From a virus: 64,000 bases of DNA. Shown here piece after piece: positions 31,054 to 63,835 of this stretch. Position numbers and translations under genes: made by a program. Under the pieces are notes generated by a model that did not search any database, was not told the origin of the DNA, and worked only from the letters and a program-made list of their open reading frames with translations. Location of the stretch: positions 46,356 to 110,355 of IMG/VR virus record IMGVR_UViG_3300009503_000022. One strand, given 5' to 3'. Position 1 is the first letter of the stretch; every line of letters starts with the position of its first letter.

Positions 31054-32607
31054 TTAAAATGTTACACCAAATGTTATAAATATCCAATTAATATCTAATG
31101 TTGGTTTAATATAAAATTTAACATCTATTTGTCTCGGTTCTAAAGGATTTTGTGTAACCTCTAAATCTCTAAATTCTACAATATCGTTTCTTCTAACTAC
31201 TGCTCCCAATAAGAATTTTATAAACGCTGTTATATTAGCAATAGTTTCACTACCTAAATTTCTAGTATTTATAAACGCATTTGTTAAATTTCTTATTAAA
31301 TATTCAGCTAAACCATCTTTTATCCTTGTAACTTTCAATTCTTGAGTCGCTACACTTGTTGGATCAGTTGACAAAGCATGCCTAACACGAAAATCACCTG
31401 CTTCTTTCTTTTCTATTATGCATACTCCATTTGATGCCATATTATTCTTTTCTGCTCTTGTAAAAATATCTCTTATATCTTTAAACGATATAATAGATTT
31501 ACCTGAAATTGGCTCTGCCCAAGTATAATTAGGATTACAAATTATACCTGCTAAAGCAGCCGCCAAATATGAACCATCTACAGTATAGTCTGTATTATTA
31601 ATTGTATAAATCTGATCAGAAGGAGATAAATAAGCTACTCTATAATGTTTAATAGATGTAGCTGCAGTTATATAATCATTAACATCAGTTGAATTTATAG
31701 GAGCCCCTATAATTGAAATTCTAAATTTCCTTTCAAGTAAAGAAGACATTTGATCAACATGATTCTTTAAATACGAAATCAAACTATTTCCTGCTTCTAA
31801 TCCCTTCATCAAAACTATAACATAACATCTCTCATTTTTTAAAGAATCTATTGCTTCTTGCAAAGCAGTTACTGTATCATCTTTTGCTTGAACACATAAA
31901 ACATAAGAAGCACCTTGTTGTTGACATATCTTCGCTCCTATTGATAAAGTATTTGTTGATATATCATTTATCTCATACACTGATGTATTATCTGGAACTG
32001 TCGTCCAATTTGGTGCAACAGTTAACACTCCAGTAGTAGTATTACTAACGATCAACCTTTCTTGACCAACACCTACTCCTGAAGTAATTTTTACATATTT
32101 TCCTTTATATTCATTAAGCGTCATTGTTAATCCTGTTGTCAATGTATTACTAGTTCCTCCTGTTGCAGTACCTGTTAAAATCAAATTCGGAAATTCAGGT
32201 GAACCAAATAAAGAAAATATAGTATCTTGCCTAGTAGTTAAATAAGGTGCATAATCTGCATCCCCTTTAATATAAGTATAAGTTACATAATATACACTTC
32301 CTGTTATCGGTTCATCTCCTGCAGGACTCCAATCGACTTTATCATTTGTTAATACATAATCTGTATCTTTTACATAAGTCTTTCCAGCTTTATCTGTAAT
32401 AGATATTATTTCAAATACTGGAGTCTTTTTTAAATCATCTTGACTATTTGCTGCACCTTTTTTAACTTGCTCGACTATTGTTAAAGTCTTTTTACCTAAT
32501 CCAATAATCGCTGGTATAAAAGCCCCAGGCGGCGCAGCAGGCACTGTTACATCTGCAAATTGTACATATACACCTGGTTCAGTATATTGTGGTGTAAAAG
32601 TTGGCAT
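31054..32607 (-). CDS. tail sheath protein
   Basis: YTEPGVYV start; YLAAALAG; C-terminal V.FYIKP...INWIFITF. Confidence 0.9.
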   Translation of the reverse strand: MPTFTPQYTEPGVYVQFADVTVPAAPPGAFIPAIIGLGKKTLTIVEQVKKGAANSQDDLKKTPVFEIISITDKAGKTYVKDTDYVLTNDKVDWSPAGDEPITGSVYYVTYTYIKGDADYAPYLTTRQDTIFSLFGSPEFPNLILTGTATGGTSNTLTTGLTMTLNEYKGKYVKITSGVGVGQERLIVSNTTTGVLTVAPNWTTVPDNTSVYEINDISTNTLSIGAKICQQQGASYVLCVQAKDDTVTALQEAIDSLKNERCYVIVLMKGLEAGNSLISYLKNHVDQMSSLLERKFRISIIGAPINSTDVNDYITAATSIKHYRVAYLSPSDQIYTINNTDYTVDGSYLAAALAGIICNPNYTWAEPISGKSIISFKDIRDIFTRAEKNNMASNGVCIIEKKEAGDFRVRHALSTDPTSVATQELKVTRIKDGLAEYLIRNLTNAFINTRNLGSETIANITAFIKFLLGAVVRRNDIVEFRDLEVTQNPLEPRQIDVKFYIKPTLDINWIFITFGVTF

Positions 32608-34915: not shown

Positions 34916-35683
34916 TTATATAGCAGATAATTCTTGTCTCCAGTTTGTTGTTATCGTATTATCATCCCATTTAACTCTATAAAAATTATTATTATGATCT
35001 ATTCTTATTATAGTACCTATTCTATTTGTTCCTATTCTCCTCACTTTTTCCCCTAATTCAAAATTACTAACTTTATTATCTTGATATGTATATTGTCCAA
35101 TCCATTCATTCGGTTGAAACTCATCTTCAAATCTAATTTTAGCTTGCACTTCTTTAAGAATATCTTCAATTTTATTTCTCTCATCTATAGCATTTACTGC
35201 TGCCTTAATTAATTCCCTTTCATCTCTAAAACTATTATCATCTTCCTCTTCTTGTATAAATAAATTATTAGCAGTATCTCTAACTTTTACCAAAGTACTT
35301 ATATGAGTAATATAATTTTCAGATTGTCCTATATCTACCCAAACTTTATTTCCAACTATTTTACGAACTATTCCTGGTTCCATATCAGGCATTGAAGAAA
35401 ATACAACTTTATCTCCAACCTTTAATCTAGCACTTTTAAGCATAGGAACCCATTGTTTTGATTTCGGATCATATACCCATTCGCTTCCTTCAGGAGGAGG
35501 AGTCGTCGGTTTTGCAGGCACTTGCGATTCTATCTCTATACCTTTATCTCGTATAACTTTATTAACCAATTCAATAGCATCTTCTTCACCATATCCATAT
35601 TCATCTACAAGTTTTCTTTTTATAGCATTAACCCCTATCCCTCGATTATACCATTTTATTATATTAGATTCTAATCCTGGCAT
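34916..35683 (-). CDS. modular protein with SH3/KOW-like barrels
   Basis: LKVGDKVVF...; FELGEKVR...GTIIR...YRVKWDD. Confidence 0.6.
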   Translation of the reverse strand: MPGLESNIIKWYNRGIGVNAIKRKLVDEYGYGEEDAIELVNKVIRDKGIEIESQVPAKPTTPPPEGSEWVYDPKSKQWVPMLKSARLKVGDKVVFSSMPDMEPGIVRKIVGNKVWVDIGQSENYITHISTLVKVRDTANNLFIQEEEDDNSFRDERELIKAAVNAIDERNKIEDILKEVQAKIRFEDEFQPNEWIGQYTYQDNKVSNFELGEKVRRIGTNRIGTIIRIDHNNNFYRVKWDDNTITTNWRQELSAI

Positions 35684-35697
35684 AATTAAATCCTCCT

Positions 35698-38600
35698 TTA
35701 ATAATTTAATATTTTTCTTAAATAAGAAGCAGCTTCAAATATCTCTTTTAAATCTAATTCTTCTATAGTTTTATCCTTTTCCTCTAAATATGCATTTAAT
35801 TCCATTTCTATTATCTTCTTTGAATTATCATTTATTTTACTTGCTTTAACTTCATTAAAATATTCTTTTAATAAATTAAAAGCCGCCTTTAATTTAGGAT
35901 TTTTAATAAATAACCAAGAAAATGGAGCAATAAAATCTATAATCATCTTTAATGTCTCTTTAATTCCTGCTTCTTTCTCAATTCCATAATCTAATCTAGT
36001 CTTCAATTGAAATTTATCTTCTTCTTTACTTCTAATCATTAACCATTTTCTATCTTCCATCGGTATTAAAGTAAATTCTCCCTTTACTTTATCAGTATTT
36101 AATCTAAATTTTCTTTTCTTATCTGACCATTCTAATATCTCTGCATCTCCAATTGCATAAGTTTCAACTATTCCTGCTCCATATTCACCTTTAGGTATTT
36201 CACCTTCAAAATAAATATAATCTACTGGATGATCCTCTGTTTCTATAAATAAAACCTTTTGTCCAGGTTCTGGTATTTTCCTCGTAACCCCTGATTTTAA
36301 AACACCATCTTTAAATATTCTCCAATCAAAATGTTTACCTGCCTTTTTTGCATAATGCAATTGAATCCCTGACTTGCCTTCTTCTCTAATTTTAGGTTTT
36401 GGTTCAGGAGTAATATCAAAATCTCTTTTTTTCTTATATTCTTCCAATCTATCATCTTCTTGAGCTTTTTTTAAAAAATATTCGTCTTCAACTTCTTGTA
36501 AATATGTAAACTTATTAAATATCTTAACACTTGATTCCAATTTCCAAGAAGCAGTTTTCAAAAATTTAGTAGTCTTATTTTGAATATCTTTTATTATTGC
36601 AGTAACACGAGGAGGTGAAATACCTAAAATCTCTGCAATCTCAACTTGACTATATCCTGATACTAACAAATTAAATACCTTCTTACCTACATCTGTAAGA
36701 AGATTTAATATTTTATCAAATAAATCATTTACTATTACTTTTTCCTCAGGTGAATCATACTTAGATTCAATAATATTCTTTATTTTAATAGGAACATCTT
36801 TATCTTCATATATAACATCTTCTAAACTATATGCTATTGTATTTACTATTTCTTTTTGAAGATATAAATCTCTTATTTCATCTTTTACTCTACCATCTAA
36901 TTGGTTATATAACCACGTTGAAAATTTTCCTTTTTCTCTATCATAAGTATCTATTGAATGTAAAATAATTTCATCAATAATAGAAGAAGCATCATAAAAC
37001 CCTGCTTTTCCTAATTTATTTTCAAATGGATACGCTAACCTTTTTAATTCAGGATAAATTTCGTTAAATATTTTTTCATCTTTCGTTTCTTTATATCTAA
37101 TCACTTTTTCATCTAAATCTTCTATTGATGATTTTTTATACAACTTTTTAAGTACTTTATCTATTTTAGCATCTTCCTTCTCAAAATCAAATAATTTATC
37201 TTCATCTATTGGTAAACATACTAATCCTGTTTTTCCTGATAAACTATACGGAACTCTTAATCCACCTGCTCTATGTAACGTACTAGTATCTAGCCTACAA
37301 GTATTTTCCTTTTTCGTAACTCCAGTAGTCAATCTTTTATCATTTTTATTTTCTATATATTCTTCTAAAGCTAATTTAATTGCTGTTCTAGCTTCATCTA
37401 CATCTATTTCTTTTTTTAATATACCATAAACGTGAAATCCTTTTGAACCAGAAAATACTATCTTAGTATCAACTACATTATCCATTGTTTCTATTAAATC
37501 TTTAACCTCAAAAACTATATCCTTTAAATCATCCCAAGAAAATCCTTCTTTTGGATCTAAATCAACATATAAAAATGGAGTAGTATCCTTAAGAGAAAAA
37601 TGCCATTCAACATTTCTACCATTATTTAATTTATCAAAATCTTTAATATTTATCGGTTTTCCCTCTATCTTTCTTTGAACTATAGTATCATCAACTTTCT
37701 TAAATAAAGTCACATCAAGATCATACTTTAAATAAGTTTCTATAATATCATCTTTAACAGTATCATAATACAAAAAAATCTCACCTTCATTAAGTCCTTC
37801 TTTATAAAATTCATTTGGTTCTACTATTATAGTTTCTGGATGCTTTGGTTTATAAGCATAAATTAAACTACTTTCTATTTTCATTGATTTACCTTCGTGA
37901 TAACAAGCATTTTGTTCAAATTCATTAGTATAAATTGTCCATCTATTTCTACCTTTATTTTTGGATTCATAAAGTGCTTTATCTGCTTTAGTAAATGAAT
38001 CATCTATATTAGATTCTAACGGAGCAGCTCCTAAACTTATAGTCACTGGTATTTCAGTTTGTTTAGTTTCTTCTTCAACTGTATTTCTTATCAATTCCAA
38101 TAATTCTTTTAAATCCTCTTCATCATCTAATTCAATAAATATTACAAATTCTTCTCCGCCCCATCTAACTATATTTTCTATATCAAGACTTTTAATTAAA
38201 TCGGCAACTGTCTTTAATACCTCGTCGCCTTTATCGTGACCATATTCATCATTAATTTGCTTAAAATGATCTATATCAGTTAAAATTATATAATTATTTT
38301 CTTCTAATAATCTTTCTTCATTATCCTCTAACCAATGCCTTGAATACAACCCAGTTAAAGCATCTGTATATAATCTTTTTTTCAATTCCTCGACTTCTTT
38401 TTGTAAATCTTTATTTTCATCTATTTCTGATTCTATCTTTCTTATTTCAGTCGGATGAACTTCAGATATTATAGATCCATCTTCTAAAGGTTTATCCCAC
38501 TTGACTACATAATCAACATCATAAATTGTTCCTCCTCGCTCTTCAGGAGCTATATCTATTATTGTTCCTGTATTATCAAAATTAATTGCCTCTATTTTAG

Positions 38601-41600
38601 TTCCCTTTTCATAAACTCCTTTTCGCGATTGAAAAGCTTTCAAACGAATCACTTTTTCATTTTTATATATATTCTCATCAAATTTTTTCTTTCTTAAATT
38701 TTCATCTAATGTTTCTACTACATTATAATATTTATCTATAATCTTATATATTTTCTCTGGATTTCTTAAAAATACAAATTCATCTCTTATTTTTAATTGA
38801 TCAAAAGTAGTTATTTCCCCTTCTTCTATTCCATGTCTTTTAAATAAACTTGAATAACATTGTTTTCTAACTAAATTTACATATTCGCTTTCTTTCTTTA
38901 AAAATTCATCTAATTCAGGATATTGCTCTTTAACATCTTTAATTTTCTTTTCTAAAACATCTAAATATTCTATCATTTTATTCCAATAAGGTTCATAAGA
39001 ATCGTCCCATATAACTATCTTATTTTTTCCTGTATTCTTACCTAATACAAGAGATTTGTGAGCATCTGTAGGAATTTTTCCAATCCCTACAGTTGCTGTA
39101 TGTCCTGTATTTTTTAAATAAATATCTATAAATTGCTGTCCTAATTTTTTGGCTTCTTCTATCGTAATAGGAATACTTATAAATATATTATCTCCACCTT
39201 CAAATATTACCTCTCCATTATACTTAGTAATTATTTCTATTATTTCTTTATTAGCATTTTTTATTTGATTAGATATATTTTTTGCTACTTCTGTATCTTT
39301 ATCATAAATGGCTTCTTCTACTCTATCTCCAATATCATCACCATCAATGGCTATATAAACAAGATTACCTTTTTCTGATCTCTGTTTACCAATTTGAGCT
39401 TCTTTATGAAAACACTCTTTTCCTTCTGAATACAATACTATTCTATCTGGTGAAATAGGTCCAACAACCACAGCAGTTCCTGCTATTCTTAAAGTATCTT
39501 CACCGGTTATATCTTTATAATAAACACCCCATTCCGGATCGTGTCTACTTTTTAGTCCTCTAGGAATTTGCTCATCATGTTTCCAATATAAAAATTTTCC
39601 TTCTACATCATCAACATAAGCACCTAAATCGACTAACATTGCATAATCTGGTAATAAATCTAAACCTGAAACATCTACTTTATAAATATATTTACCAGGA
39701 AACTTTCCTGGTTCTTTAGAAACAAAAACAGATTCTTCTGGTAACCAACCATAATCAAAAAATTGTTCCCCAGCTTCTGTTAATCCTTTTGTTTTTCTAC
39801 CCACTAAACCCTCTTTCAAAATTATTTCTGGAGGAACATTTGTACTATGATATAAATATTTAATAGCTTTCTTTTCTAATTCTTCAATCTTTTTCATTAC
39901 TCCTTTATGAATAAGTCTAGGTTTCATATCCTTTATTTTTTGTAAAACTTCTTTTTTTAACTCATATAACATCTTAATTTCATCACCAGATGGAGAATAT
40001 TTAATTGACCAATTTATTTCTCTTACGAGTTCCCATAAATTCCAAATTATTAAATCAATAGTTTCACCTGTTGCTTTCATATTTAAAATATCTTTAAAAT
40101 CTTCTTCTAATTCACTTATAGGTTTACCAATTTGAGCTTCTTTATGAAAATATTCTCCTAACTTCATTTGTTCTCTTAATTCCCATATTTTAAATAATTC
40201 TGATTCTTGAGCTAAACTTGGACTCCATTGCATTCTTAATCCATCAAAATGAATCCAATCAACTATTTTATCTATAACATAAAATTTTTCAAAACCTTCT
40301 TTTGAATAAGCTTCTTCACCTTGTTTAATCAATTCTTCTATTTTCTTTATGTTTCTTTTTATAGGTTCTACTTCAACTCTTGTTGTGCCTCCAGTTTTTA
40401 ATTTATTTAAATGATAAATTAATTCTTCTAAAATTTTATCTAATTTATCATCATCATAAATACCCTTAGATGCATCAATATAAACTTTTCTTAAATCAGT
40501 AAGAAATATTGCTTCTTTGTTTAAAAAAGCTCTTAATTGTTCTAACTTATTATTATTTCCATATTGAAAAATATTTGCAATTCTAGACATTAACCAACCC
40601 TTTTCCTCAAATCCAGGTATTTGCTCAAGCCTTAAATCTTCTGGAATTACTTTCTTATCCTCTCTATATCTTTCTATTCTTGGTTTTCTAATTATCCCTG
40701 TCATTTTATCTTCTATTTGTATCCATTTATTATCTTCAAACTTATATGCAGGTCCTTTTTTTATATTTACTTCTTCACCTTGTACTTCTACAATACAAGG
40801 TTCTTTAAAAGGATCAACCCAAATTCTACCATCTTCATCTTCAAATACTTTATTTCTTTCTGCCCATTCTATAAATTCTAATCGTTCCTTATCAGTAAAC
40901 CCTGTCCCAACCTTACCATTAAGCCTAAATATCCCTTCTTTATCTCTAAATGAAGTTAATATTGCGCCCATCTGTTCAGGATGCTTTTTACTTCTTTCTA
41001 CTGCAACTACAACTAAATCAATAGATAAAATCGGTTTTACCTTAACTATTTTATTATCATAATAAATTATAAGTCCTTCATAACCATATTTTTGAGGTTG
41101 TACAACCTTATCCCATAATTCGTCTACATCATTTAAATCAGCATTTTCAAAATATTCTGCTGGCTTTACATACTTTCCTTTGCTAAACAAATTTCTTAAT
41201 CCACTAATTCTATATGATAAATCTTTATCTTGCCAATCAATTCCATCTATACTTATAATATCAAATACTATTATCCTTATTCTTTCTTCATCTTCTTTAG
41301 TTTTCGGAGCCTTTAATAAACTCTGAGATTTTAAATAACTTAATGGAATACCATCTTCACTAACTCCATAAATTTCTCCAACTCCTATAAATTCTTTTAA
41401 CGGTTTATTTTTTAATAATTCTGTAATTTCATCCGTAACAGGTAAATCATAACGAATTGTACCTGCTCTAGTAACTGTTATTGTTCTACCATCTTTATAT
41501 TCTATTCCAACTATTTCTCCATCTAATTTTACCGATATTGTAAATTTCTTACCTTTTAATTTTTCTCTCAATTCATCTATAGTATAAAACTTCATCGACA

Positions 41601-41676
41601 TTCTTTCTTTATAATCACTTACTATAGATGAAATTGGATTTTCTTTATCTATTTCTTTTTTAAATGCTAATATCAT
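35698..41676 (-). CDS. 1992-aa polyvalent protein: ATP-dependent DNA ligase, ART-like, mCpol, SH3-like, GGDEF, LigD primase-polymerase, sigma-70, LigD phosphoesterase
   Basis: KLDG/FDII/EGLII/VKVKP/VGTGFT/REDK (~40600-41600); YLYHST..ILKEGL (~39430-39865); IDGDDIG/GGDN (~39005-39365); DALTGL/DIDHFK/GGEEF (~37930-38375); DLDP/SGSKGFH (~37150-37860); FSTW/EIAEILGIS (~36560-37125); Q.H..HFDWR/EDHP..Y/GEYGAG (~36030-36450). Confidence 0.9.
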   Translation of the reverse strand: MILAFKKEIDKENPISSIVSDYKERMSMKFYTIDELREKLKGKKFTISVKLDGEIVGIEYKDGRTITVTRAGTIRYDLPVTDEITELLKNKPLKEFIGVGEIYGVSEDGIPLSYLKSQSLLKAPKTKEDEERIRIIVFDIISIDGIDWQDKDLSYRISGLRNLFSKGKYVKPAEYFENADLNDVDELWDKVVQPQKYGYEGLIIYYDNKIVKVKPILSIDLVVVAVERSKKHPEQMGAILTSFRDKEGIFRLNGKVGTGFTDKERLEFIEWAERNKVFEDEDGRIWVDPFKEPCIVEVQGEEVNIKKGPAYKFEDNKWIQIEDKMTGIIRKPRIERYREDKKVIPEDLRLEQIPGFEEKGWLMSRIANIFQYGNNNKLEQLRAFLNKEAIFLTDLRKVYIDASKGIYDDDKLDKILEELIYHLNKLKTGGTTRVEVEPIKRNIKKIEELIKQGEEAYSKEGFEKFYVIDKIVDWIHFDGLRMQWSPSLAQESELFKIWELREQMKLGEYFHKEAQIGKPISELEEDFKDILNMKATGETIDLIIWNLWELVREINWSIKYSPSGDEIKMLYELKKEVLQKIKDMKPRLIHKGVMKKIEELEKKAIKYLYHSTNVPPEIILKEGLVGRKTKGLTEAGEQFFDYGWLPEESVFVSKEPGKFPGKYIYKVDVSGLDLLPDYAMLVDLGAYVDDVEGKFLYWKHDEQIPRGLKSRHDPEWGVYYKDITGEDTLRIAGTAVVVGPISPDRIVLYSEGKECFHKEAQIGKQRSEKGNLVYIAIDGDDIGDRVEEAIYDKDTEVAKNISNQIKNANKEIIEIITKYNGEVIFEGGDNIFISIPITIEEAKKLGQQFIDIYLKNTGHTATVGIGKIPTDAHKSLVLGKNTGKNKIVIWDDSYEPYWNKMIEYLDVLEKKIKDVKEQYPELDEFLKKESEYVNLVRKQCYSSLFKRHGIEEGEITTFDQLKIRDEFVFLRNPEKIYKIIDKYYNVVETLDENLRKKKFDENIYKNEKVIRLKAFQSRKGVYEKGTKIEAINFDNTGTIIDIAPEERGGTIYDVDYVVKWDKPLEDGSIISEVHPTEIRKIESEIDENKDLQKEVEELKKRLYTDALTGLYSRHWLEDNEERLLEENNYIILTDIDHFKQINDEYGHDKGDEVLKTVADLIKSLDIENIVRWGGEEFVIFIELDDEEDLKELLELIRNTVEEETKQTEIPVTISLGAAPLESNIDDSFTKADKALYESKNKGRNRWTIYTNEFEQNACYHEGKSMKIESSLIYAYKPKHPETIIVEPNEFYKEGLNEGEIFLYYDTVKDDIIETYLKYDLDVTLFKKVDDTIVQRKIEGKPINIKDFDKLNNGRNVEWHFSLKDTTPFLYVDLDPKEGFSWDDLKDIVFEVKDLIETMDNVVDTKIVFSGSKGFHVYGILKKEIDVDEARTAIKLALEEYIENKNDKRLTTGVTKKENTCRLDTSTLHRAGGLRVPYSLSGKTGLVCLPIDEDKLFDFEKEDAKIDKVLKKLYKKSSIEDLDEKVIRYKETKDEKIFNEIYPELKRLAYPFENKLGKAGFYDASSIIDEIILHSIDTYDREKGKFSTWLYNQLDGRVKDEIRDLYLQKEIVNTIAYSLEDVIYEDKDVPIKIKNIIESKYDSPEEKVIVNDLFDKILNLLTDVGKKVFNLLVSGYSQVEIAEILGISPPRVTAIIKDIQNKTTKFLKTASWKLESSVKIFNKFTYLQEVEDEYFLKKAQEDDRLEEYKKKRDFDITPEPKPKIREEGKSGIQLHYAKKAGKHFDWRIFKDGVLKSGVTRKIPEPGQKVLFIETEDHPVDYIYFEGEIPKGEYGAGIVETYAIGDAEILEWSDKKRKFRLNTDKVKGEFTLIPMEDRKWLMIRSKEEDKFQLKTRLDYGIEKEAGIKETLKMIIDFIAPFSWLFIKNPKLKAAFNLLKEYFNEVKASKINDNSKKIIEMELNAYLEEKDKTIEELDLKEIFEAASYLRKILNY
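39384..40150. repeat. 29-bp perfect direct repeat (39384-39412 and 40122-40150) encoding FHKEAQIGK
   Basis: gtttaccaatttgagcttctttatgaaaa at both positions, 738 bp apart, in frame. Confidence 0.9.
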
Positions 41677-42056: not shown

Positions 42057-44117
42057 TTATATCTCCTCTTTAATCAATTCTTTAGCTGCATTAACAAATA
42101 AATTAAAATCATCAACTTTAACTTTTTTACTTATTCTAGAAAATATCTCATCCATATATCCTTCAATAATACTATCATAATTTATATCTATTTTTTTATT
42201 ATCTTCAGTCGCTATTTTCTTTAATAAATTAGCATCTTCAATAACAGCATTAACAATATCGTCTAATTGAATATTTGCTTTAATAAATTCTTTAATAGAC
42301 GATTCTTTTTCAATAGTATCTTTAATCTCTTTTTTTATTTTCTTTTGAGTTTTATCATCAAATTCTTTTTTATACTTATCCTTTGCTTTTAAAAATTTTT
42401 CTATTTCTTTATCTAACTCTTTTTTCTTTTCTTCAGTTACTTCTTCATCTACCTTAATTATTTCAGTTGGATGAACTTCAGTAATTGTTTCTCCTGCTAC
42501 TGGAGTATCCCATTTTATAATATAATCTATATCTCCAGGTTTTTCATCATTTTTATAAATTACATATCCCATAAGCCCATTCGTCTGTAATTGAACTCTA
42601 TCATATACTTCAAATTCGTCTTCTTCTATAGCTGATGTTAATAATAATCTATATTTCATTACATTTTCATCTTTATACTCGTTCATTTTAAATTTAAACT
42701 CAGTATTATCATCTAAAGATGCAGTCACTATTCCTAATCTTGGATCAAATCGTCTATAAGTATAAATATCAGGACTATTTTCAAATTGAAATTTATCACC
42801 TAATTTTAATTCACTAAACTTAACATATCCTTGTTTTTGATATATTTTATCGTAATCTTGAATAGATTCTTTTTTCTTCATCTTTTTATCTTTTTTTATT
42901 TCTTTATCATAAGATTTTTGTAATTTTTTTTCAGATTTAGATTTATCTATTTTCCTTTCCATATTCATATTAACACCCTCGGATAATTCTGGTAATTCTC
43001 TAAATTTAACAGTAGAATTATCAGAAACATTTAAAGTATCTATATTAATAGTTGTATCTGATTTTCTATTTAATGAAGATCTTAAACTTGCTATTTTCCT
43101 CAATCTATTAGGATATTTCTCTAATAAATCTTTAATATTGCCTCTTAAACCAGTTACATCCCCTTCTATATTTGTAACATTTCCTTCAATATAAGAAACA
43201 TCTCCTTTTATGTTAGATACATCTCCTTTTAAATAAGAAACATTTCCCCTTATATTAGATACATCTCCTACAATATTTGAAGCATCTCCATATATATTTG
43301 AAGCATCTCCATATATATTTGAAGCATCTCCATATATTTTAGATTTATCCCCTGTTACATTTTCATCATTAATCAATCTACTTTTTTGTGATTTTATTCT
43401 TAATGAAGACTTTTTCGTTCTTTTAAATTTTTCAAATAAATCTGGATTTTCACTAATAAACTTATTTACACCATCCATAAACCATACATGCCACCCAGAA
43501 CCTTCTGTTTCTAATTTCTTTTTTATACTTTCCCAACCTTCTTCAAAATAATATTCTGCTTCTTTTTGAGCTTTTTTATCACCTTTATAAGCAGGATCTA
43601 TAATTAAACTATCCATAAGATCAATTGCATATTCTTGTATTGGAGTTTCAAGTTTAATAACATCCGATTTTCTTAATTGCATATTTCCTCCTAAATTTGC
43701 AAAAGATTTCTCTAATACATCTTGAGGATTTTCTATAACCATTTTATCTCGAGGAACTTTTTGCTCTTCAGGAAATACAAAAAGATCATCTTTTAAAATA
43801 GTATCATTTTGAGATTTCCTTTCTAATAATCTTTTTACAAAATCTCTCCATTCTTCCTTATTTTCTTCTACCATTCCATCAAATATTTCTTTTGCTTTAT
43901 CTTCTGTAACATCATAAATATTCATAAAATACTTTACTATTTCTGAATCTATATCATCGGCAATTTTTTCTAAAGTAAATTCGCTTCCTGTATCTAATTC
44001 AGGATTAGATGATATATCAGGATTAGTTTTAAAATAATCCAACTCGTGAAATTTTCCTGAATCATGTGGATATTTAATCTCATCAAATCCACCTTGAGCT
44101 TTACGTCTCAAATTCAT
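42057..44117 (-). CDS. modular polyprotein-like protein (heptad solenoid, SH3-like modules)
   Basis: Eleven xxxGD[AV]S-type heptads; EVHPTEI module; multiple L-x-[KR]-x-[AS] linkers. Confidence 0.7.
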   Translation of the reverse strand: MNLRRKAQGGFDEIKYPHDSGKFHELDYFKTNPDISSNPELDTGSEFTLEKIADDIDSEIVKYFMNIYDVTEDKAKEIFDGMVEENKEEWRDFVKRLLERKSQNDTILKDDLFVFPEEQKVPRDKMVIENPQDVLEKSFANLGGNMQLRKSDVIKLETPIQEYAIDLMDSLIIDPAYKGDKKAQKEAEYYFEEGWESIKKKLETEGSGWHVWFMDGVNKFISENPDLFEKFKRTKKSSLRIKSQKSRLINDENVTGDKSKIYGDASNIYGDASNIYGDASNIVGDVSNIRGNVSYLKGDVSNIKGDVSYIEGNVTNIEGDVTGLRGNIKDLLEKYPNRLRKIASLRSSLNRKSDTTINIDTLNVSDNSTVKFRELPELSEGVNMNMERKIDKSKSEKKLQKSYDKEIKKDKKMKKKESIQDYDKIYQKQGYVKFSELKLGDKFQFENSPDIYTYRRFDPRLGIVTASLDDNTEFKFKMNEYKDENVMKYRLLLTSAIEEDEFEVYDRVQLQTNGLMGYVIYKNDEKPGDIDYIIKWDTPVAGETITEVHPTEIIKVDEEVTEEKKKELDKEIEKFLKAKDKYKKEFDDKTQKKIKKEIKDTIEKESSIKEFIKANIQLDDIVNAVIEDANLLKKIATEDNKKIDINYDSIIEGYMDEIFSRISKKVKVDDFNLFVNAAKELIKEEI

Positions 44118-48230: not shown

Positions 48231-48258
48231 AGGAGAGGAGAAACTAATCTCCTCTCCT
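48231..48258 (-). terminator. hairpin immediately downstream of the major capsid gene
   Basis: aggagaggaga / tctcctctcct 11-bp stem, 6-nt loop; no clear U-tract on the minus strand, so it may be a stabiliser or partial terminator. Confidence 0.55.
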
Positions 48259-48274
48259 TTAATTTTAAAATCAA

Positions 48275-49255
48275 TTACACAATTGTAAACTTGGTAATAC
48301 CAGCGGTATTGTGAATACCAATACCAATCTGTTCCCAACCTACTATATCATACTGATTTTTTGGAATATTATCAAATATCTTAACTTCAACTGCTTTCCT
48401 TTCTGGAATTCTTCCTAATTTATCAGGTGTCGTAAATACATATACTGTTTTTGCAGGACATCTTGTAGTTACAAGCATCCTTGCTCCATATATAGAACCA
48501 AACAACCCAGTTTCAACTATTGTATTCAACGAAACCTGATCTAAATCTGTAGAATTCCACTTTAAAATATCTGCATATTGCTCTGGATTCATCATCACTC
48601 CACCAACAATTAACTGATTTGCTAAGATCTGCTTATATGCATCTGCAAGAGCATATCTAGTTACTGAAGAAGCAGTAAATGGAGTATTAGGTCCATTTAC
48701 GACTGCTGCCTCCATAACTTTAACTATCTCATCATCTTCCGCAATTGCCATAGCAATAGCAACCCTCTCTTTACCTCTATCAAATGCAGGATATCTCCTG
48801 ATTTGAATTTCTTCCCATTTTAATTCATGATCAATTGAAATTGGAAATGTAGGGAATTGCACCCTCTTTATATTTGCTTGAAATCTAGGAGCCTCTCCTC
48901 TTGCTGCAACTACTACTGCTCCAAATTCTGGAATATCCAAATCATAAATTGGAAATTCCCCTTGAGGTATTTCATCTACCAGTAATACCCTATTTCTTCC
49001 AACTGCTACATAATCTAATCTACTCTTTAGAGGAACCTGCATAGCAAATGCAACCCTCTTTAAACCATTAGGTCCAGTAAATATAGCATTAAAAGCTTTC
49101 TCAGCTTTTTCAATCATCGCAGATGTAGGAACTACTGGCGATGAAGCTGTCCTTGAAAATCCATCTTCTCCAAGAACTGATTCAGAAATTTTTAATAAAT
49201 TTTTAATAAACTCGTCTTTCTGTCTAGAAGATAAATTACTTAATTTCCCTATCAT
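48275..49255 (-). CDS. major capsid protein (HK97 fold)
   Basis: AMQVPLKSRLDY..VGR...LVDE.PQGE.P.YD; GLFGSIYGA; WEQIGIG; follows protease and decoration genes. Confidence 0.85.
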   Translation of the reverse strand: MIGKLSNLSSRQKDEFIKNLLKISESVLGEDGFSRTASSPVVPTSAMIEKAEKAFNAIFTGPNGLKRVAFAMQVPLKSRLDYVAVGRNRVLLVDEIPQGEFPIYDLDIPEFGAVVVAARGEAPRFQANIKRVQFPTFPISIDHELKWEEIQIRRYPAFDRGKERVAIAMAIAEDDEIVKVMEAAVVNGPNTPFTASSVTRYALADAYKQILANQLIVGGVMMNPEQYADILKWNSTDLDQVSLNTIVETGLFGSIYGARMLVTTRCPAKTVYVFTTPDKLGRIPERKAVEVKIFDNIPKNQYDIVGWEQIGIGIHNTAGITKFTIV

Positions 49256-49813: not shown

Positions 49814-52075
49814 TTATTGCTCATTTCTTATATTTTGAGCTTGTGTATGCATATTCCATACATCCATTAAATTCTGCAACGGACTTGATTCGGTTCCTTT
49901 CTCATCTACTTGAATTTCAGGTATATTATCTTTACTAGAAATTATCTCTGTACCTTCGGGTTTCTTTTCAGTTCTTATATTCAATATTTCGGCAACTACT
50001 GCTAATCCTTCTTCATTCAAATTCGATAACTTTTCAATCAATTTCTTTTTAAATTCTTCATCTAATGGTTTAACTGTTTCGATATTAGCAATTAATTTAA
50101 CAATATCTTCACTCTTTGCTTTCCTTTCAATCGATTCATTCCTATCTTCTAAAAACTTTATTCTAGCATTTTTCATTTTAATCATATCTTCTAATCTAGA
50201 AATCTTTTCAAAAGCATCATCCAATTTACTTTTTAAATTCAATGCAATTTCGGGTTCAGCAACTGTTCTAGAAGGAAATCTACTATAATAATCTTTTATC
50301 TTTGTTCCATCTGTCCTTGTAGGAATTTTGAGCTTTTTAATTTCATCTTCTCTTATAGATCTTGTTATTTTATCAGGTTTTGCAGGCTCAGTTGCAACTT
50401 CCTCCTGCTTTATTGCAAAAAAGTCATAGGCTTTCCTTCTAAGTGAAGCATTTCTTGGCAACCACTTTAAAAATCCTTCGTATGTTCTACCACATTCTCT
50501 TATAATTTGATCTATAGCTTCATCAACCGAAATTACTTTTTTATCTCCACTAGCTATTCTCTTCTGAATACCAAAAGGTATTATCAAAGATGCTCTTACT
50601 ACTTTTGTTTTTCCGTCGGAACTTTTTGCTACAAAATAAGACTTATCAAAAGTTTCACCCGGAATATATTGTATTGTTAAATCTTTCATAATCTTACTCC
50701 CCTCCTTTATTTGAGTTTCCTCAGTAACCTGAGGTTTCTCTAATTTTAATATTTGTCTATATCTATTTACTTTCTCTATTTCTGATAATTCCTCAGAAAT
50801 CTTTTCAACCAACAATTGTGTTGGATTACCTCTATCAAATAACCTCAACATTTCCTTTTCTTTTACAATCTCAGGTTTTAATTCATAACCATCACCCAAA
50901 ACTATTATCTCTTGCTCTAATTGAGATCGTACAGATTTTGATTCCTTTATTTGCTCAATCTCAACTTCTTCAGATTTTTTCTTTGGTTTTTCTTCTAATT
51001 TCTCATCCTCTTTTTTTGTTCTAAATTTTTCCTCTTCCTTTTCGGTTTTAGGTTTTTCCTCTTCTTTTTCAGTTTTAGGTTTTTCTTTTTCTTTTTTAAC
51101 ATCTTCAGTTTCTTCTAAATTTTTTAACTTATCTGCAAGTTCTTTACTAACTTCTTCTTTAACCAAATTTTTAACAATACTATCCATCTTAGATTCTAAT
51201 AAACTATCAACTATTTCTTCAATCTTATCTTCAAAATCCTCTTCTCTATTATCAATAAGTGCTTTTTTCAAAAATTTATAATCTTTAAACGATATTTTAT
51301 TCATAACAGTTCTTTTCGCCTCCTCTTTTTTATTAGCAATTATAGTATTTGCATAAATATTAGCCGAAGGATCAGCTGGTTGTTTAACACCACTCAATTC
51401 ATTAAATACTATTTTTTTATTAATTTCATAAGCAATCTTTTTTCCATTAAATTCCTTTATGTTTGGATGATCATAAATCTTACCTTTTACAAATTCTGGA
51501 TTAGGCATCGTATGAGCTTCATCTAAATACGGCTTCATGTGTTTACATAATTCATCTTCATTATGTGCAACATTATTACAAATTGGACAAATTGCCTCAG
51601 CACATAAGCATCCCATTGAAACACTTTTAATTTTTCCATTTTTTATTTCTTCACAAATATCTGGACAATCTTTCTTTGACACTGCAACAATACATTCAAC
51701 ATATTCTTTATCGTCAAGAGCATCTGCTTTTACAATTATACCTTTTGCCTTCTCAGGATCATCACTATCATGCTCTATATAAAACCCTTTGCTTATAAAT
51801 GTATTAACTGCAGCTTTTATCTCTTTCCAAGGAAAAAAATCCCCATTTCCATTAGGTCCATATCTTTCACTACCAGAAATTGCTCTACATTTAAAATATA
51901 AAAAATTATCTGTATCAAATTCATTTTGTAAAGTAATATATGATTTAGCATAAGACTCTCGAACAATCTGTTTCCAATTTTGAGCTAAATTAGCAATCTT
52001 CTCAAAACCTAAAACCTTTAATTCACTCTCATCTAATAATTCTATATCGACAAGGCTTCCAATCCTTTTAAACAT
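49814..52075 (-). CDS. prohead protease fused to scaffold-like C-terminus
   Basis: N.NGDFF...EH...SVSMGC...CPIC...C.H...ELSGV..PADP.A; acidic coiled-coil tail with EKPKTEKEE repeats. Confidence 0.8.
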   Translation of the reverse strand: MFKRIGSLVDIELLDESELKVLGFEKIANLAQNWKQIVRESYAKSYITLQNEFDTDNFLYFKCRAISGSERYGPNGNGDFFPWKEIKAAVNTFISKGFYIEHDSDDPEKAKGIIVKADALDDKEYVECIVAVSKKDCPDICEEIKNGKIKSVSMGCLCAEAICPICNNVAHNEDELCKHMKPYLDEAHTMPNPEFVKGKIYDHPNIKEFNGKKIAYEINKKIVFNELSGVKQPADPSANIYANTIIANKKEEAKRTVMNKISFKDYKFLKKALIDNREEDFEDKIEEIVDSLLESKMDSIVKNLVKEEVSKELADKLKNLEETEDVKKEKEKPKTEKEEEKPKTEKEEEKFRTKKEDEKLEEKPKKKSEEVEIEQIKESKSVRSQLEQEIIVLGDGYELKPEIVKEKEMLRLFDRGNPTQLLVEKISEELSEIEKVNRYRQILKLEKPQVTEETQIKEGSKIMKDLTIQYIPGETFDKSYFVAKSSDGKTKVVRASLIIPFGIQKRIASGDKKVISVDEAIDQIIRECGRTYEGFLKWLPRNASLRRKAYDFFAIKQEEVATEPAKPDKITRSIREDEIKKLKIPTRTDGTKIKDYYSRFPSRTVAEPEIALNLKSKLDDAFEKISRLEDMIKMKNARIKFLEDRNESIERKAKSEDIVKLIANIETVKPLDEEFKKKLIEKLSNLNEEGLAVVAEILNIRTEKKPEGTEIISSKDNIPEIQVDEKGTESSPLQNLMDVWNMHTQAQNIRNEQ

Positions 52076-54065: not shown

Positions 54066-55847
54066 CTAAATTGCTGGCGTCTCACCTTCTCCCTTTGCAG
54101 GAGGAGGCACTGGTTCTTTCTCCTCTTTTGGTACTTCTGGTTTTGGCGGCAACGGTGATAACGGCTGATGAATCATCTTCTTTTCAGGTTCAAAAATAAC
54201 AGGTTTTTCTACTATACTTTCGCCTTTTTCTTTAATTGTCCACTTTTCTACTTTAGTACCATCTAATATTTGATTTGCTATTTTTTCGTCTCCTGCTTTA
54301 GAATCTCTTACCTTTCTCCATAATGGATCTAATTCTGTAGATTGCTCTTCTTTAAACGCTTGTTTAATTGCATCTAAATCCCAATCAAATAACTCTGCTA
54401 TATATTTAAACGGAATTTCTCCATTTTCTCTTAATCTACCTACAAATTCCATCAATTCTCTATTATTCATCAAATTCATCCTATGCCAAAATATCTTAGG
54501 TATATCATAACCACTTCTTGTTGTTCTAACCCTATGATCAATATCTGCTTGCTTTGGAAGTTTAAAATCTCTAGCTATACAAAGTAAAAATAATACTTTC
54601 TCTGTAAGCTTATTTGCTAACGACTCTCTAAACGTCATATACTTATTCATCAAAACTCTAACACTAATCGCTTGACTTGCATACGGTCCTAATTCACCAT
54701 GAACTACAGCATCATTAACAAATAAACCCACCATATACCTTTTTGCAACAAATTCAAAATGAGGAATCAAATCCATTATTTTATCTCTCCCAACAACATA
54801 ATCAACTTCTACAAAAGGATGTGTTATAATATTATAATCTGGGTCGTTACTAGCTTGTATTAAATGTTGCTCAAATTCTTTATATTTAGAAGGAGGAGGA
54901 ATCCATCCTTTCTCCTTTGATCCTATTTTAAATATCTTAATAGGAAATGCGTGTCTATTTACAAATGTAGTTAATAACATTCTTAACTGATCTTCATACA
55001 ATAAATCTTTTATTACACTTAATACTGGACTTATCCCTCTCGGAGTATATTTATTAGGCCTCCTTGCTAAATGAATCAATCTCTTATTATCAAACATATA
55101 ATTTTTACCAGATTTCATTTTTTCTACAAATTCTGGCATTTCCTGTTCCATTAATTCAATTATTTTTTTATCTATCGGATCACTAGACCTCAACTGCTTT
55201 TTTATATTTTCGTTTGGTTTTATAAAATACACAAAACTTGAAACATACGTAGGTCTAACTTCAACATCTTCTGGAGGATATTGATTAAATGATTCAAATT
55301 CTTTATCATAATCATTCCAATTACCATATAAAAATCCTTCCCCTAATAACCAATGATCTTTTGATATCATAACTAATGTTTCTAACAATTCTTTCCTTTC
55401 CTTAAATTCATTAAAATATTTTGTAATTGCTGGATCAACACATTTAAAATCAAAATCAGATAAAGGAAACTCTGAATGAAGATCTATAATATTTCTAATA
55501 TAAGGATTATATTGATAATAATGTCTTAATCTTCTATTCAATTCACGAATATTATCTTTCGGAAATAACATCAAAACTGGATCAAATAAAGGATCCATAT
55601 ACAACAAAGGAACTCTATCAACCGAAGGAGCAATCGTAAAACTCATATCGGCTGCTTCTCTAGTAAATCCTTCCTTCATTGCTGATTGAATATATTTTTC
55701 TTTTTCAGTTTCTAATTTTGCTTTAGATAATTCAACCTTATCTTTATACGCCTCTCCATCAAAAGAATGCAATGTTGCCTTTCTTCCAATAGTCTTAAGT
55801 TGATCCAATCTCTTTACCATTTCCTTATCTAATTTATCTTTAGACAT
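54066..55847 (-). CDS. portal protein
   Basis: YY..NP.IRNIIDLHSEFP...W.LGE.F...H.AR.....PRG.S.....K.L.Y...P.KI.KIG; upstream of protease. Confidence 0.8.
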   Translation of the reverse strand: MSKDKLDKEMVKRLDQLKTIGRKATLHSFDGEAYKDKVELSKAKLETEKEKYIQSAMKEGFTREAADMSFTIAPSVDRVPLLYMDPLFDPVLMLFPKDNIRELNRRLRHYYQYNPYIRNIIDLHSEFPLSDFDFKCVDPAITKYFNEFKERKELLETLVMISKDHWLLGEGFLYGNWNDYDKEFESFNQYPPEDVEVRPTYVSSFVYFIKPNENIKKQLRSSDPIDKKIIELMEQEMPEFVEKMKSGKNYMFDNKRLIHLARRPNKYTPRGISPVLSVIKDLLYEDQLRMLLTTFVNRHAFPIKIFKIGSKEKGWIPPPSKYKEFEQHLIQASNDPDYNIITHPFVEVDYVVGRDKIMDLIPHFEFVAKRYMVGLFVNDAVVHGELGPYASQAISVRVLMNKYMTFRESLANKLTEKVLFLLCIARDFKLPKQADIDHRVRTTRSGYDIPKIFWHRMNLMNNRELMEFVGRLRENGEIPFKYIAELFDWDLDAIKQAFKEEQSTELDPLWRKVRDSKAGDEKIANQILDGTKVEKWTIKEKGESIVEKPVIFEPEKKMIHQPLSPLPPKPEVPKEEKEPVPPPAKGEGETPAI

Positions 55848-63217: not shown

Positions 63218-63835
63218 TCAAAATCTCCTTTCTAACCTATCAGGATATTTTTTTAATAAATCTTCGATATCACCTCTTAAACCAGTCACATCACCTTCTA
63301 CACCTGTAACATCACCTCGTATACCAGAAACCTCTCCAACTATATTAGATACATCTCCTTTTAAATGAGATACATCACCAAACGTATCAGTTACATCACC
63401 TTTTATGTTAGATACATCACCTTCTATACTAGATACATCTCCTTCTATATTAGATACATCACCTCTTATATTAGATACATCGCCCCTTATATTAGATACA
63501 TATCCTTCTATATCTGATGCATCTCCCTTTATATTTGAAGCATCTCCATATATATTTGATACATCACCTCTTAAATTAGATACATCACCTTCTATATATA
63601 GATCAAACGGAGAACCTTCTATATAAGCTACTTCTCCTCTTATATTAGATACATCACCTTCTAAATAAGAAACATCTCCCCTTATTTTAGATACATCTCC
63701 ACTTATATTTGATGCATCTCCTTTTATATTCGAAGCATCTCCCCATATATTAGACTTATCTCCTGTTACATTTTCATCATTAATCAATCTCCTTCTTTGC
63801 GATTTTATTCTTAATGAAGATTTTAACCAATACAT
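63218..63835 (-). CDS. heptad-repeat (xxxGD[VA]S) beta-solenoid protein
   Basis: About 24 heptads; MYWLKSSLRIKSQ leader. Confidence 0.75.
   Translation of the reverse strand: MYWLKSSLRIKSQRRRLINDENVTGDKSNIWGDASNIKGDASNISGDVSKIRGDVSYLEGDVSNIRGEVAYIEGSPFDLYIEGDVSNLRGDVSNIYGDASNIKGDASDIEGYVSNIRGDVSNIRGDVSNIEGDVSSIEGDVSNIKGDVTDTFGDVSHLKGDVSNIVGEVSGIRGDVTGVEGDVTGLRGDIEDLLKKYPDRLERRF

Follow-up and report, generated by a model that had tools for sequence, protein, structure and literature searches.

An mCpol domain (minimal CRISPR polymerase, a Cas10-Palm-like cyclase) is encoded among the structural genes of an uncultured myovirus with a genome of about 145 kb, almost certainly as one part of a polyvalent protein. 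The DNA analyzed, referred to here as the window, is a 64,000-nucleotide stretch of the IMG/VR virus record IMGVR_UViG_3300009503_000022 (positions 46,356 to 110,355 of that record), and all coordinates are those of the window. The domain lies at 39010 to 39357 on the minus strand and forms residues 774 to 889 of a 1992-aa multienzyme open reading frame (ORF), P0001 (35698 to 41676, minus strand), a single open frame in a genome of 27% GC. The initial annotation had read the segment as a free-standing cyclase, and that reading did not hold. The overall explanation that we consider best, and judge to be about evenly poised, is that this giant is a polyvalent protein whose cyclic nucleotides, made by mCpol and by a GGDEF domain, interfere with the nucleotide-based immunity of the host.

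The characterization of mCpol dates from 2025-2026 and identified it as the enzyme that makes the signal in bacterial Panoptes guards, in which the cell dies once a nucleotide produced constitutively is lost (PMC12657218, PMC12657230, PMC13577387). The initial annotation assigned the interval 39005 to 39365 to this family from four motifs, and all four were found there on the minus strand, where the interval corresponds to residues 771 to 891 of the 1992-aa ORF: YIAIDGDDIG (residues 774 to 783), FEGGDN (825 to 830), TVGIG (862 to 866), and KNTGKN (879 to 884). The match is far beyond chance. Family membership was confirmed by profile searches, by matches to OptS structures, and by an intact active site. 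The Pfam mCpol model PF18182 matched the ORF with an E value of 1.1e-18 (68.1 bits; gathering score, 26.4) and gave 75.3 bits (E 4e-22) in a six-frame search of the record; the NCBIfam model NF033576 scored 52.1 bits against the domain, with a cut-off of 40. The solved OptS/mCpol proteins 9nwn and 9mnr were matched over the entire domain length (phmmer versus PDB, E 3e-9), and this full-length alignment predicts a minimal Cas10-like Palm fold. The Cas10 palm model PF22335 also matched (E 8e-12), so the domain is homologous to the Palm/cyclase domain of type III CRISPR-Cas. Whereas Cas10 has two Palm domains together with HD, zinc-finger, and D4 parts and cas genes, the giant has a single minimal Palm and none of those; no cas genes, CRISPR array, or other Cas10 parts were detected alongside it.

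The active site was compared with that of Panoptes OptS (KpOptS and VnOptS; 9nwn and 9mnr; PMC12657218, PMC12657230), which, like type II mCpol (PMC13577387), belongs to the same family (PF18182/NF033576). The catalytic residues of KpOptS are D6 and D57 (PMC12657218). D778 of the giant (codon 39343 to 39345) aligns with D6, and D829 (codon 39190 to 39192), which sits in a GGDN hairpin, aligns with D57. S802 aligns with the ATP-selecting S30, and K806 stands at the position of N34. The two proteins align end to end and agree in the catalytic Asp pair and in the ATP-selecting Ser. They differ in the hairpin (AAD in OptS), in the Lys at the N34 position, and in a C-terminal helical extension specific to the clade of the giant. 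A viral clade with an overall identity of just 35 to 50% keeps the metal-binding Asp pair, the GG hairpin, S802, and the G.G and GK..GK motifs without variation. From these residues, we predict that the domain is probably a catalytically active cyclase. The active site of OptS/mCpol is assembled across protomers (PMC12657218, PMC12657230), and by analogy the domain would be expected to need dimerization and to make a cyclic adenylate.

At least seven domain models from Pfam and NCBIfam matched within the single frame of P0001. The N terminus carries a LigD-type ATP-dependent DNA ligase with adenylation and OB parts (40654 to 41586, minus strand; residues 31 to 341) and the KxDG motif VKLDG (PF01068 and PF04679 in Pfam; TIGR02779/TIGR02776 in NCBIfam). 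The remaining modules follow mCpol in the reading direction, all on the minus strand. A GGDEF diguanylate cyclase domain with an intact GGEEF (37942 to 38370; residues 1103 to 1245) matched PF00990 (E 1e-30), TIGR00254 (109 bits), and solved diguanylate cyclases (E 1e-23); it is the sole GGDEF in the phage record, and no RxxD I-site was seen in it. It is followed by a LigD-type primase-polymerase (PrimPol) of the AEP type (37132 to 37848; residues 1277 to 1515; PF21686, E 4e-13, and PF01896) and by an ECF-type sigma-70 module with regions 2 and 4 (36574 to 37074; residues 1535 to 1701). The sigma module scored 45.4 bits with TIGR02937 (cut-off, 42.9) and matched the PHROG 1740 sigma factor (E 2e-8), while its Pfam region 2 and region 4 matches stayed under the gathering score. 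A LigD 3'-phosphoesterase (PE) completes the set (36022 to 36447; residues 1744 to 1885; PF13298, E 2e-16; TIGR02777, E 8e-30).

All three LigD domains are present in P0001 (PF01068/PF04679, PF21686, and PF13298; TIGR02779 and TIGR02777), at scores that miss the equivalog cut-offs. As in the bacterial end-joining (NHEJ) protein LigD, ligase, PrimPol, and 3'-phosphoesterase occur together with their motifs (KxDG, DxD/SGxGxH, and a His-rich PE). In the giant, unlike in bacterial LigD, these domains are dispersed and interrupted by signaling and transcription modules, and the phage record has no Ku: PF02735, which matched control genomes, gave no match in this 76%-complete record. No nucleotide-sensor domain was recognized in the giant with Pfam or NCBIfam.

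A further domain, between ligase and mCpol, is a lead only. This ART-like domain (39418 to 39855, minus strand; residues 608 to 753) starts with YHST, and its borders are set by P0160, a free-standing 144-aa homologue with 56% identity. ART-clan families made up 27 of its 30 named ESM Atlas matches (DarT/PARP, 0.93; Arr, 0.92), and the domain had no sequence match in Pfam or PDB. The AF2 model of the domain with its neighboring helical unit had a mean pLDDT of 46, too poor for a fold search, so the ART assignment stays a lead. The two units form an in-frame cassette of 246 codons flanked by a direct repeat of 35 nt at 94% identity (29 nt exact). The copies, 738 nt apart, lie at 40122 to 40156 (copy 1) and 39384 to 39418 (copy 2); the latter encodes FHKEAQIGK and is immediately upstream of mCpol in the reading direction. 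This peptide occurs twice in the entire phage record, both times in the 1992-aa ORF. We considered whether it is a general prohead-protease motif, and found this unsupported; the only two copies of the peptide fall in one ORF and share one DNA sequence, which is better explained by a recent recombination or duplication event at a linker.

mCpol is followed by the clade-specific extension (38416 to 39009, minus strand; residues 890 to 1087), which consists of an IWDxxYEPYW helical hairpin and then one or more small beta-rich Y.VKW..P domains and is common to P0003, P0004, P0005, and P0009. A low-confidence AF2 model (mean pLDDT, 52) likewise contained a helical hairpin and beta strands. The protein ends in a conserved tail (35701 to 35976, minus strand; residues 1901 to 1992) with the pattern W[LM]F..N ... 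MEL.AYLEE..K.IE.L.L.E. In pairwise BLASTP, it matched the extreme C termini of P0004 (E 6e-5), P0009 (E 8e-4), and P0005 (E 2e-3). A tail-only search found no shorter proteins with the tail, and the matches of a tail HMM were confined to the sequences from which it was built.

The claim that the cyclase is phage encoded proved sound. The IMG/VR virus record (110 kb, 76% complete) has portal, prohead protease, major head, and tail sheath genes, and its genes share a single strand throughout, a layout of lytic style. P0001 lies between the head genes (portal, 54066 to 55847; prohead protease, 49814 to 52075; major head protein, 48275 to 49255, minus strand; PHROG 2522, E 3e-31) and the neck and sheath genes (tail sheath, 31054 to 32607, minus strand; PHROG 2839, E 5e-35). 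A neighboring 686-aa ORF (42057 to 44117, minus strand) carries the beta-rich module of the giant, its residues 386 to 577 matching residues 908 to 1100 (BLASTP, E 2e-17); its tail compares with that of the giant at E 0.16, too weak to establish relatedness, and its GDxSNIxG repeats gave a weak PHROG match to a minor head protein. Directly downstream of the giant is a 255-aa ORF (34916 to 35683, minus strand). A promoter and terminator scan was uninformative, with fewer promoter-like sites than in shuffled sequence.

The initial annotation saw no CARF or 2TM effector nearby, and as far as tested this is correct: the neighbors are structural or unknown proteins, and no S-2TMbeta or CARF-TM effector is present in the flanking 53-aa, 686-aa, and 255-aa ORFs. 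Transmembrane, S-2TMbeta, CARF, and SAVED domains were likewise not found by Pfam in the giant or, for the Cap15/S-2TMbeta receptor (PF18153) and SAVED, by their models across the 110-kb record, a negative that is weak because both models matched no control genome. The free-standing bacterial OptS protein of about 125 aa, by comparison, is encoded in defense islands, where a 2TM or CARF-TM effector shares its operon. It had also been suggested that a phage copy could replenish a depleted signal; Tad2, 2H phosphoesterase, and AcrIII-1 were not seen in the 76%-complete record, so that no sponge or nuclease was found that would make replenishing necessary.

The block is syntenic throughout with that of a second phage, G001, whose major head protein and tail sheath are 81% and 47% identical to those described above. 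The 686-aa ORF has a G001 homologue at the same relative position (L093_59_1633), and the homologue of the 255-aa ORF (L093_13323_13859; BLASTP, E 1e-33) is also directly downstream of the mCpol gene. At the position of the giant, G001 has separate genes for a ligase-PrimPol protein (1020 aa), a 410-aa ORF, and an mCpol-tail protein, P0009, which is the positional counterpart of the giant. Against the 1020-aa protein, the ligase of the giant shows 52% identity (to the ligase part) and the PrimPol 35 to 37% (to the C-terminal part). Ligase, PrimPol, and mCpol are thus the three modules kept at the locus in both phages, whereas GGDEF, sigma, PE, and the ART-like domain are not kept in G001.

Viral mCpol domains are a distinct clade, nearly always fused to other domains and repeatedly encoded in or beside head morphogenesis genes. 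In a tree, the mCpol of the giant groups with its viral kin, and 13 stand-alone proteins of 117 to 142 aa form a separate clade. Its closest homologues (43 to 54% identity) are multidomain proteins; fusion partners among the kin are GGDEF (P0003), InPase (P0017), GNAT (L007), and NUDIX. P0003, which is carried on contigs of 113 to 141 kb, combines mCpol, GGDEF, and the start of a PE. In five viral contigs (L003, L004, L005, L006, and L008), the mCpol ORF lies 2.6 to 4 kb upstream of homologues of portal and protease, and in L010/L011 it adjoins baseplate-like proteins; PHROG annotation of the gene neighbors in L002, L006, and L007 gave nothing informative. A protein identical to P0001 is present on two contigs of the protein collection. 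A pattern scan of IMG/VR found no close relatives of the full giant, and a search of 5.8 billion clusters found no relatives of it sized 1095 to 3486 aa. Its DNA had no match in GenBank phages, and mCpol was absent from 50,697 GenBank phage records and from PHROGs. The P0003 query returned nothing in viral contigs, and its metagenome scan was dominated by generic GGDEF proteins; a scan of genome contigs with the clade alignment gave one locus, a GGDEF protein with no mCpol.

The architecture and setting resemble those of the polyvalent proteins of phages and conjugative elements described by Iyer, Burroughs, Anand, de Souza, and Aravind in 2017 (PMC5512222). Such proteins combine 2 to 15 disparate domains and are encoded among late virion genes. 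P0001 has ligase, mCpol, GGDEF, PrimPol, sigma-ECF, and PE domains by curated models, to which the ART-like domain adds as a lead, and the virion-gene neighborhood is seen at its locus, in G001, and in the five other viral contigs. The domain sets overlap (PrimPol, ART-like, and GGDEF in the giant; InPase, GNAT, and NUDIX in its relatives), with GGDEF, InPase, GNAT, and NUDIX all named as polyvalent-protein domains (PMC5512222), and modules are shuffled, split, or fused between the relatives. There are also differences. The terms mCpol, DNA ligase/LigD, and sigma factor occur zero times in PMC5512222, the 3'-phosphoesterase being covered through the term LigD only. The hallmark anchors MuF, portal fusion, and zincin peptidase were undetected in the giant (Pfam, E of ≤1; PHROGs and NCBIfam, E of ≤0.01), which instead has the conserved C-terminal tail common to its kin. 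T4 Alt ADP-ribosyltransferase and the N4 virion RNA polymerase share its late-gene position among structural genes and predicted immediate action on entry (PMC5512222); its activities (cyclases, ligase, and sigma) differ from theirs.

By gene position and analogy with such proteins, delivery of the giant in the virion is slightly favored. It would be a late product that enters the capsid and leaves it together with the DNA, possibly cut at the repeated linkers beforehand, and its modules would go to work as soon as they reach the new host. The LigD trio would heal and seal phage DNA ends, the sigma module would recruit host RNA polymerase, and the ART-like module would modify a host target. 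As dimers, mCpol and GGDEF would constitutively synthesize cyclic di- or oligonucleotides, an adenylate and c-di-GMP, respectively. These nucleotides would most likely keep guard effectors of the Panoptes "inverse-signaling" type repressed, or would fill CARF, SAVED, or other receptors as nonactivating ligands. Deployment by an invader rather than by the host fits, because the gene is a multienzyme fusion in a late structural block and because the relatives are fused to GNAT, NUDIX, InPase, and GGDEF, domains listed for polyvalent proteins in PMC5512222. That immune-signal interference is the purpose we propose only tentatively. The most specific form of this proposal, in which virion-packaged mCpol and diguanylate cyclase are ejected with the DNA and make the inhibitory "all is well" nucleotide of Panoptes or an analogue that blocks CARF/SAVED receptors, seems to us improbable as stated. 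c-di-GMP from the GGDEF module would activate bacterial TIR-STING where this is present, which argues against a purely anti-immune role for that module.

The two cyclases may instead serve to take over host physiology, raising c-di-AMP-like and c-di-GMP pools so that motility, envelope, biofilm, or osmotic programs are switched; superinfection could then be blocked through pili, flagella, or surface glycans, or the cell could be conditioned for phage production. In favor of this, the GGDEF of the giant is a canonical diguanylate cyclase that retains GGEEF, two separate proteins (P0001 and P0003) combine GGDEF with mCpol, and other phage records contain GGDEF genes as well. Interference with host responses and other signaling uses have been offered for GGDEF in polyvalent proteins (PMC5512222), and c-di-GMP-dependent receptor synthesis is reported to be important for phage N4 (PMC8669472). 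However, the known mCpol products, 2',3'-c-di-AMP, 3',2'-cGAMP, and cA3, are immune ligands and not housekeeping messengers (PMC12657218, PMC13577387), and G001 keeps mCpol yet shows no GGDEF, indicating that mCpol is independent of the c-di-GMP module. We regard this takeover as unlikely.

Less likely still is a part for mCpol in genome entry, in which it would work with ligase and PrimPol on the incoming DNA and not against host immunity, making a short oligonucleotide or cofactor or a signal that regulates the end-repair or transcription modules of the phage itself. It is consistent with the joint conservation of ligase, PrimPol, and mCpol in both syntenic phages, where GGDEF, sigma, PE, and ART-like domains are not conserved, and with mCpol being a polymerase-related Palm-domain nucleotidyltransferase, as its PF22335 match indicates. 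On the other hand, every mCpol, Cas10-Palm, or GGDEF enzyme characterized to date is a cyclase with a signaling nucleotide as its product (PMC12657218, PMC12657230, PMC13577387), many viral mCpol proteins (L002 to L011, P0004, and P0005) are without ligase or PrimPol in the same polypeptide, and the giant has no recognized nucleotide sensor.

The reverse arrangement, a defense carried by the phage in which mCpol and an effector region that went unrecognized act as a Panoptes-like guard against competing phages or plasmids, is very unlikely in our estimation. mCpol is so far known from defense systems only, the 200 to 900 residues without Pfam assignment in most viral mCpol proteins could hide effectors, and a response against rival elements is mentioned as a possibility in PMC5512222. 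Against this, the searches for transmembrane, S-2TMbeta, CARF, and SAVED domains were negative, the one-strand layout is lytic in style, and the gene, a fusion with repair and transcription enzymes, belongs to the late structural block and not to an accessory or moron locus. That the fold is an inactive relic, retained only to give a virion protein structure or spacing, might be read from K806 in place of N34 and from the Asn that replaces the second acidic residue of GGDD (GGDN), but is highly improbable given the invariant catalytic motifs of a divergent clade and the activity of OptS, which has AAD and no GGDD (PMC12657218). A prophage-carried Panoptes operon was rejected because the defining features of Panoptes are missing: mCpol is not free-standing, no membrane effector is adjacent, and the locus is not a cellular genome or defense island but a viral record with portal, protease, capsid, and sheath genes on its flanks.

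The presence of this module in a phage protein suggests that a virus carries a signaling enzyme so far known only from bacterial defense; the literature searched describes mCpol in cellular genomes only, with no link to phages. The phage mCpol domains are a distinct clade, nearly always fused to other enzymes and repeatedly found within head or virion gene blocks, and even without an immune role they add mCpol, together with the LigD ligase and ECF sigma module of the giant, to the polyvalent repertoire. The giant also lends itself to direct biochemical tests with a compact set of constructs. If an enzyme delivered with the DNA does make a Panoptes-type ligand, it would be a phage answer to inverse-signaling immunity and a new layer of the arms race, and it would define a new class of anti-defense protein that is a synthase and not a sponge or nuclease. 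A virus would then, for the first time, be seen to make an immune second messenger in order to silence immunity, and the trait would be conserved in a whole family of uncultured myoviruses.

The mCpol motifs at 39005-39365, which the initial annotation had read as a phage cyclase possibly feeding or decoying nucleotide-based immunity, lie within a 1992-codon ORF (35698-41676, minus strand) encoding a giant multi-enzyme protein. mCpol here is one domain of a larger protein and not a separate gene. All four motifs were found on the minus strand (YIAIDGDDIG, aa 774 to 783; FEGGDN, aa 825 to 830; TVGIG, aa 862 to 866; KNTGKN, aa 879 to 884), and the family assignment held against Pfam, NCBIfam, and PDB. 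The Pfam mCpol model PF18182 matched the protein with an E value of 1.1e-18 and 68.1 bits (gathering score, 26.4) and reached 75.3 bits when the entire record was searched in six frames; NF033576 (NCBIfam) scored 52.1 bits (cutoff, 40). The sole phmmer matches among all PDB chains were 9nwn and 9mnr (E value of 3e-9, full domain), which are the two solved Panoptes synthases. The catalytic residues of the Panoptes synthase KpOptS are Asp6 and Asp57 (PMC12657218), and the phmmer alignment to the PDB places D778 and D829 of the giant protein at these positions. S802 aligns with the ATP-selecting Ser30 of KpOptS, and K806 stands at the Asn34 position. The hairpin reads GGDN, nearer to the GGDD of Cas10 than to the AAD of OptS. 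Judged by sequence, there is no doubt that the domain belongs to the mCpol family.

Curated models (Pfam, NCBIfam, PHROG, and solved structures) placed the modules of the giant protein, all in one frame. These are an ATP-dependent (LigD-type) DNA ligase (aa 31 to 341; Pfam, NCBIfam), mCpol (aa 774 to 889), a canonical GGDEF diguanylate cyclase with GGEEF intact (aa 1103 to 1245; E value of 1e-30, and 1e-23 to solved cyclases), a LigD primase-polymerase (PrimPol; aa ~1277 to 1515; Pfam), an ECF-type sigma-70 module (aa 1535 to 1701; TIGR02937, 45.4 bits against a cutoff of 42.9; PHROG sigma factor, E value of 2e-8), and a LigD 3'-phosphoesterase (aa 1744 to 1885; Pfam, NCBIfam). The protein collection records this protein, identical over 1992 aa, on two contigs, which rules out an assembly artifact as the source of the fusion. 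Residues 608 to 753 form a discrete domain with a 144-aa free-standing homologue (56% identity). In a language-model atlas, 27 of its 30 named matches were ADP-ribosyltransferases (ARTs; DarT/PARP, 0.93; Arr, 0.92). Since sequence searches and AlphaFold yielded nothing usable for this domain, its ART-like assignment is a lead only. Structure models of the helical plus ART-like cassette and of the post-mCpol extension were both poor. We also noted a 35-nt direct repeat (29 nt exact) at 39384-39418 and 40122-40156, 738 nt apart, both copies encoding FHKEAQIGK. The copies flank an in-frame 246-codon cassette (helical unit and ART-like domain) directly before the mCpol domain. This looks like a recent gain or duplication at a linker, and recombination between the copies would remove the cassette in frame.

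The IMG/VR record is 110,355 bp (CheckV completeness, 76%), with 27% GC, one coding strand, and no tRNAs. Across 1-64000, all real-looking ORFs of at least 100 aa are on the minus strand, GC skew is strong and uniformly negative (-0.19 to -0.51), and GC content is 24 to 32% throughout. In transcriptional order, genes for the portal (54066-55847), the prohead protease (49814-52075), and the major head protein (48275-49255) are followed by several small ORFs, a 686-aa ORF (42057-44117), the giant ORF, a 255-aa ORF and two more ORFs, the tail sheath gene (31054-32607), and the tail and baseplate genes, all on the minus strand. By this order, the giant gene belongs to the late block and separates the head genes from those of the neck and tail. 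Immediately past the end of the major head protein gene, a perfect, GC-rich 11-bp hairpin (48231-48258) is likely a terminator or attenuator. ORFs 63218-63835 and 42057-44117 share an SSLRIKSQ motif and long runs of a heptad-like GDxSNIxG repeat; PHROG matches to "minor head protein" and "tail needle" fall on this repeat. A plain listing of basic-x-A-[QTS] strings (RRKAQ, GRKAT, SRTAS, HKEAQ, KKAQ) near the N termini and module borders of head-region proteins gave candidate sites that may be used by the prohead protease: 42057-44117 (N terminus), 54066-55847 (aa 19 to 25), 48275-49255 (aa 32 to 38), and, in the giant protein, aa 511 to 516, 757 to 762, and 1737 to 1741.

An exhaustive HMMER search, with the 140-aa mCpol domain as the query against 1.84 billion representatives, returned 694 matches. 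The nearest homologues (43 to 54% identity) are multidomain proteins, unlike the minimal OptS-like proteins: P0003 (774 aa; mCpol, GGDEF, and the start of a LigD phosphoesterase; on 113- to 141-kb contigs), P0004 (885 aa), P0005 (587 aa), P0009 (1107 aa), and P0017 (1297 aa; mCpol and an InPase pyrophosphatase). The giant protein and these kin share a helical extension, IWDxxYEPYW, right after mCpol and a small beta-rich Y.VKW..P module, which recurs in the neighboring 686-aa ORF (E value of 2e-17). The extreme C-terminal tail recurs in P0004, P0005, and P0009. Besides mCpol, only NUDIX, GNAT, and DUF5661 were found among 98 further multidomain homologues. P0008, a 309-aa metagenomic protein, has tandem mCpol domains (aa 20 to 156 and 163 to 299), recalling the two Palm domains of Cas10. 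An IMG/VR scan by clade alignment picked up mCpol ORFs (300 to 841 aa) on ten viral contigs, including fusions to GNAT (L007, 9017-10459, above threshold) and HEAT repeats (L011); the L009 ORF (9521-10453) had a weak, below-threshold SAM-lyase-like match. Metagenome and genome-collection scans were unproductive. A quick maximum-likelihood tree of 167 mCpol domains places that of the giant protein in a group with P0003, P0004, P0005, P0006, P0009, and P0023 (aLRT, 87 to 93), and this group adjoins a clade holding six IMG/VR loci; 13 free-standing proteins of 117 to 142 aa form a separate, well-supported clade.

P0009 is encoded on IMG/VR contig 3300009502_000034 (G001; 78.5 kb, 40% GC), a relative that is syntenic over the whole structural block. 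Counterparts include a 460-aa protein (49% identity), the portal and protease, the major head protein (81%), three small head-region ORFs, the 686-aa ORF, the 255-, 321-, and 196-aa ORFs, and the sheath (47%), tail, and baseplate proteins. The exact place of the giant ORF is taken in G001 by three genes, encoding a 1020-aa ligase plus PrimPol (52% and 35 to 37% identity to the respective parts), a 410-aa product without assignment, and the 1135-aa mCpol-plus-tail protein (P0009). The GGDEF, sigma, phosphoesterase, and ART-like parts had no match in the G001 record (50% complete). What this cargo locus conserves is therefore ligase, PrimPol, and mCpol, whereas the remaining modules are lineage-specific additions; on this comparison, the giant protein is a fusion of shuffled modules in which mCpol and GGDEF lie between ligase and PrimPol. 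Large insertions split otherwise collinear homology in the G001 portal (1103 versus 593 aa; L094:4887-8198), prohead protease (1160 versus 753 aa; L094:10340-13822), and ligase (longer by about 355 residues around the KxDG region; L093:5717-8779), and all three appear intein-like. Elsewhere, mCpol ORFs lie 2.6 to 4 kb upstream of portal and prohead protease homologues (L003, L004, L005, L006, and L008) or between baseplate-like proteins (L010 and L011), so the association with virion gene blocks is recurrent.

The giant protein has the architecture of the polyvalent proteins described by Iyer et al. in 2017 (PMC5512222). In these phage and plasmid products, unrelated enzymes are combined; their genes lie among virion genes, and their entry into the host along with the DNA is a prediction. 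Their domain list includes PrimPol, ART, GGDEF, InPase, NUDIX, and GNAT; mCpol, DNA ligase/LigD, and sigma factor, all present in the giant protein, go unmentioned there. On the preferred explanation, the protein would be a toolkit made late and probably packaged and ejected, in which the LigD trio would heal and seal DNA ends, the sigma module redirect host RNA polymerase, the ART-like module modify a target, and mCpol and GGDEF synthesize cyclic nucleotides. The active site of both cyclase types spans two protomers (PMC12657218); therefore, these modules must dimerize, either within an oligomeric polyprotein or following proteolytic release.

We infer that interference with nucleotide-based immunity, ranked first, may be the purpose, which would include the initial annotation's idea of supplying Panoptes-type guards with their inhibitory ligand. 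Counting against this, Tad2, 2H phosphoesterase, and AcrIII-1 were not found in the 76%-complete record, and the conserved partners of mCpol are DNA-repair modules. Alternatively, c-di-GMP and c-di-AMP-like signals might reprogram host physiology or exclude superinfection, a possible but rather unlikely role. It is improbable that the protein serves as an accessory to genome entry or repair, or that it regulates modules of the phage itself, and a Panoptes-like weapon carried against competitors is slightly more improbable still. The DGD, GGD, G.G, and GK..GK motifs are kept in all viral members, and an inactive relic is very improbable.

The mCpol domain had no tblastn match in 50,697 GenBank phage records, and no PHROGs v4 family covers it. 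A full-text literature search of incomplete coverage turned up no paper connecting mCpol with phage genomes or with polyvalent proteins, and phage mCpol goes unmentioned in the Panoptes papers, a 2026 review, and the jumbo-phage survey. Within the literature searched, what is new here is that a polyvalent protein carries a domain known until now only in host defense.
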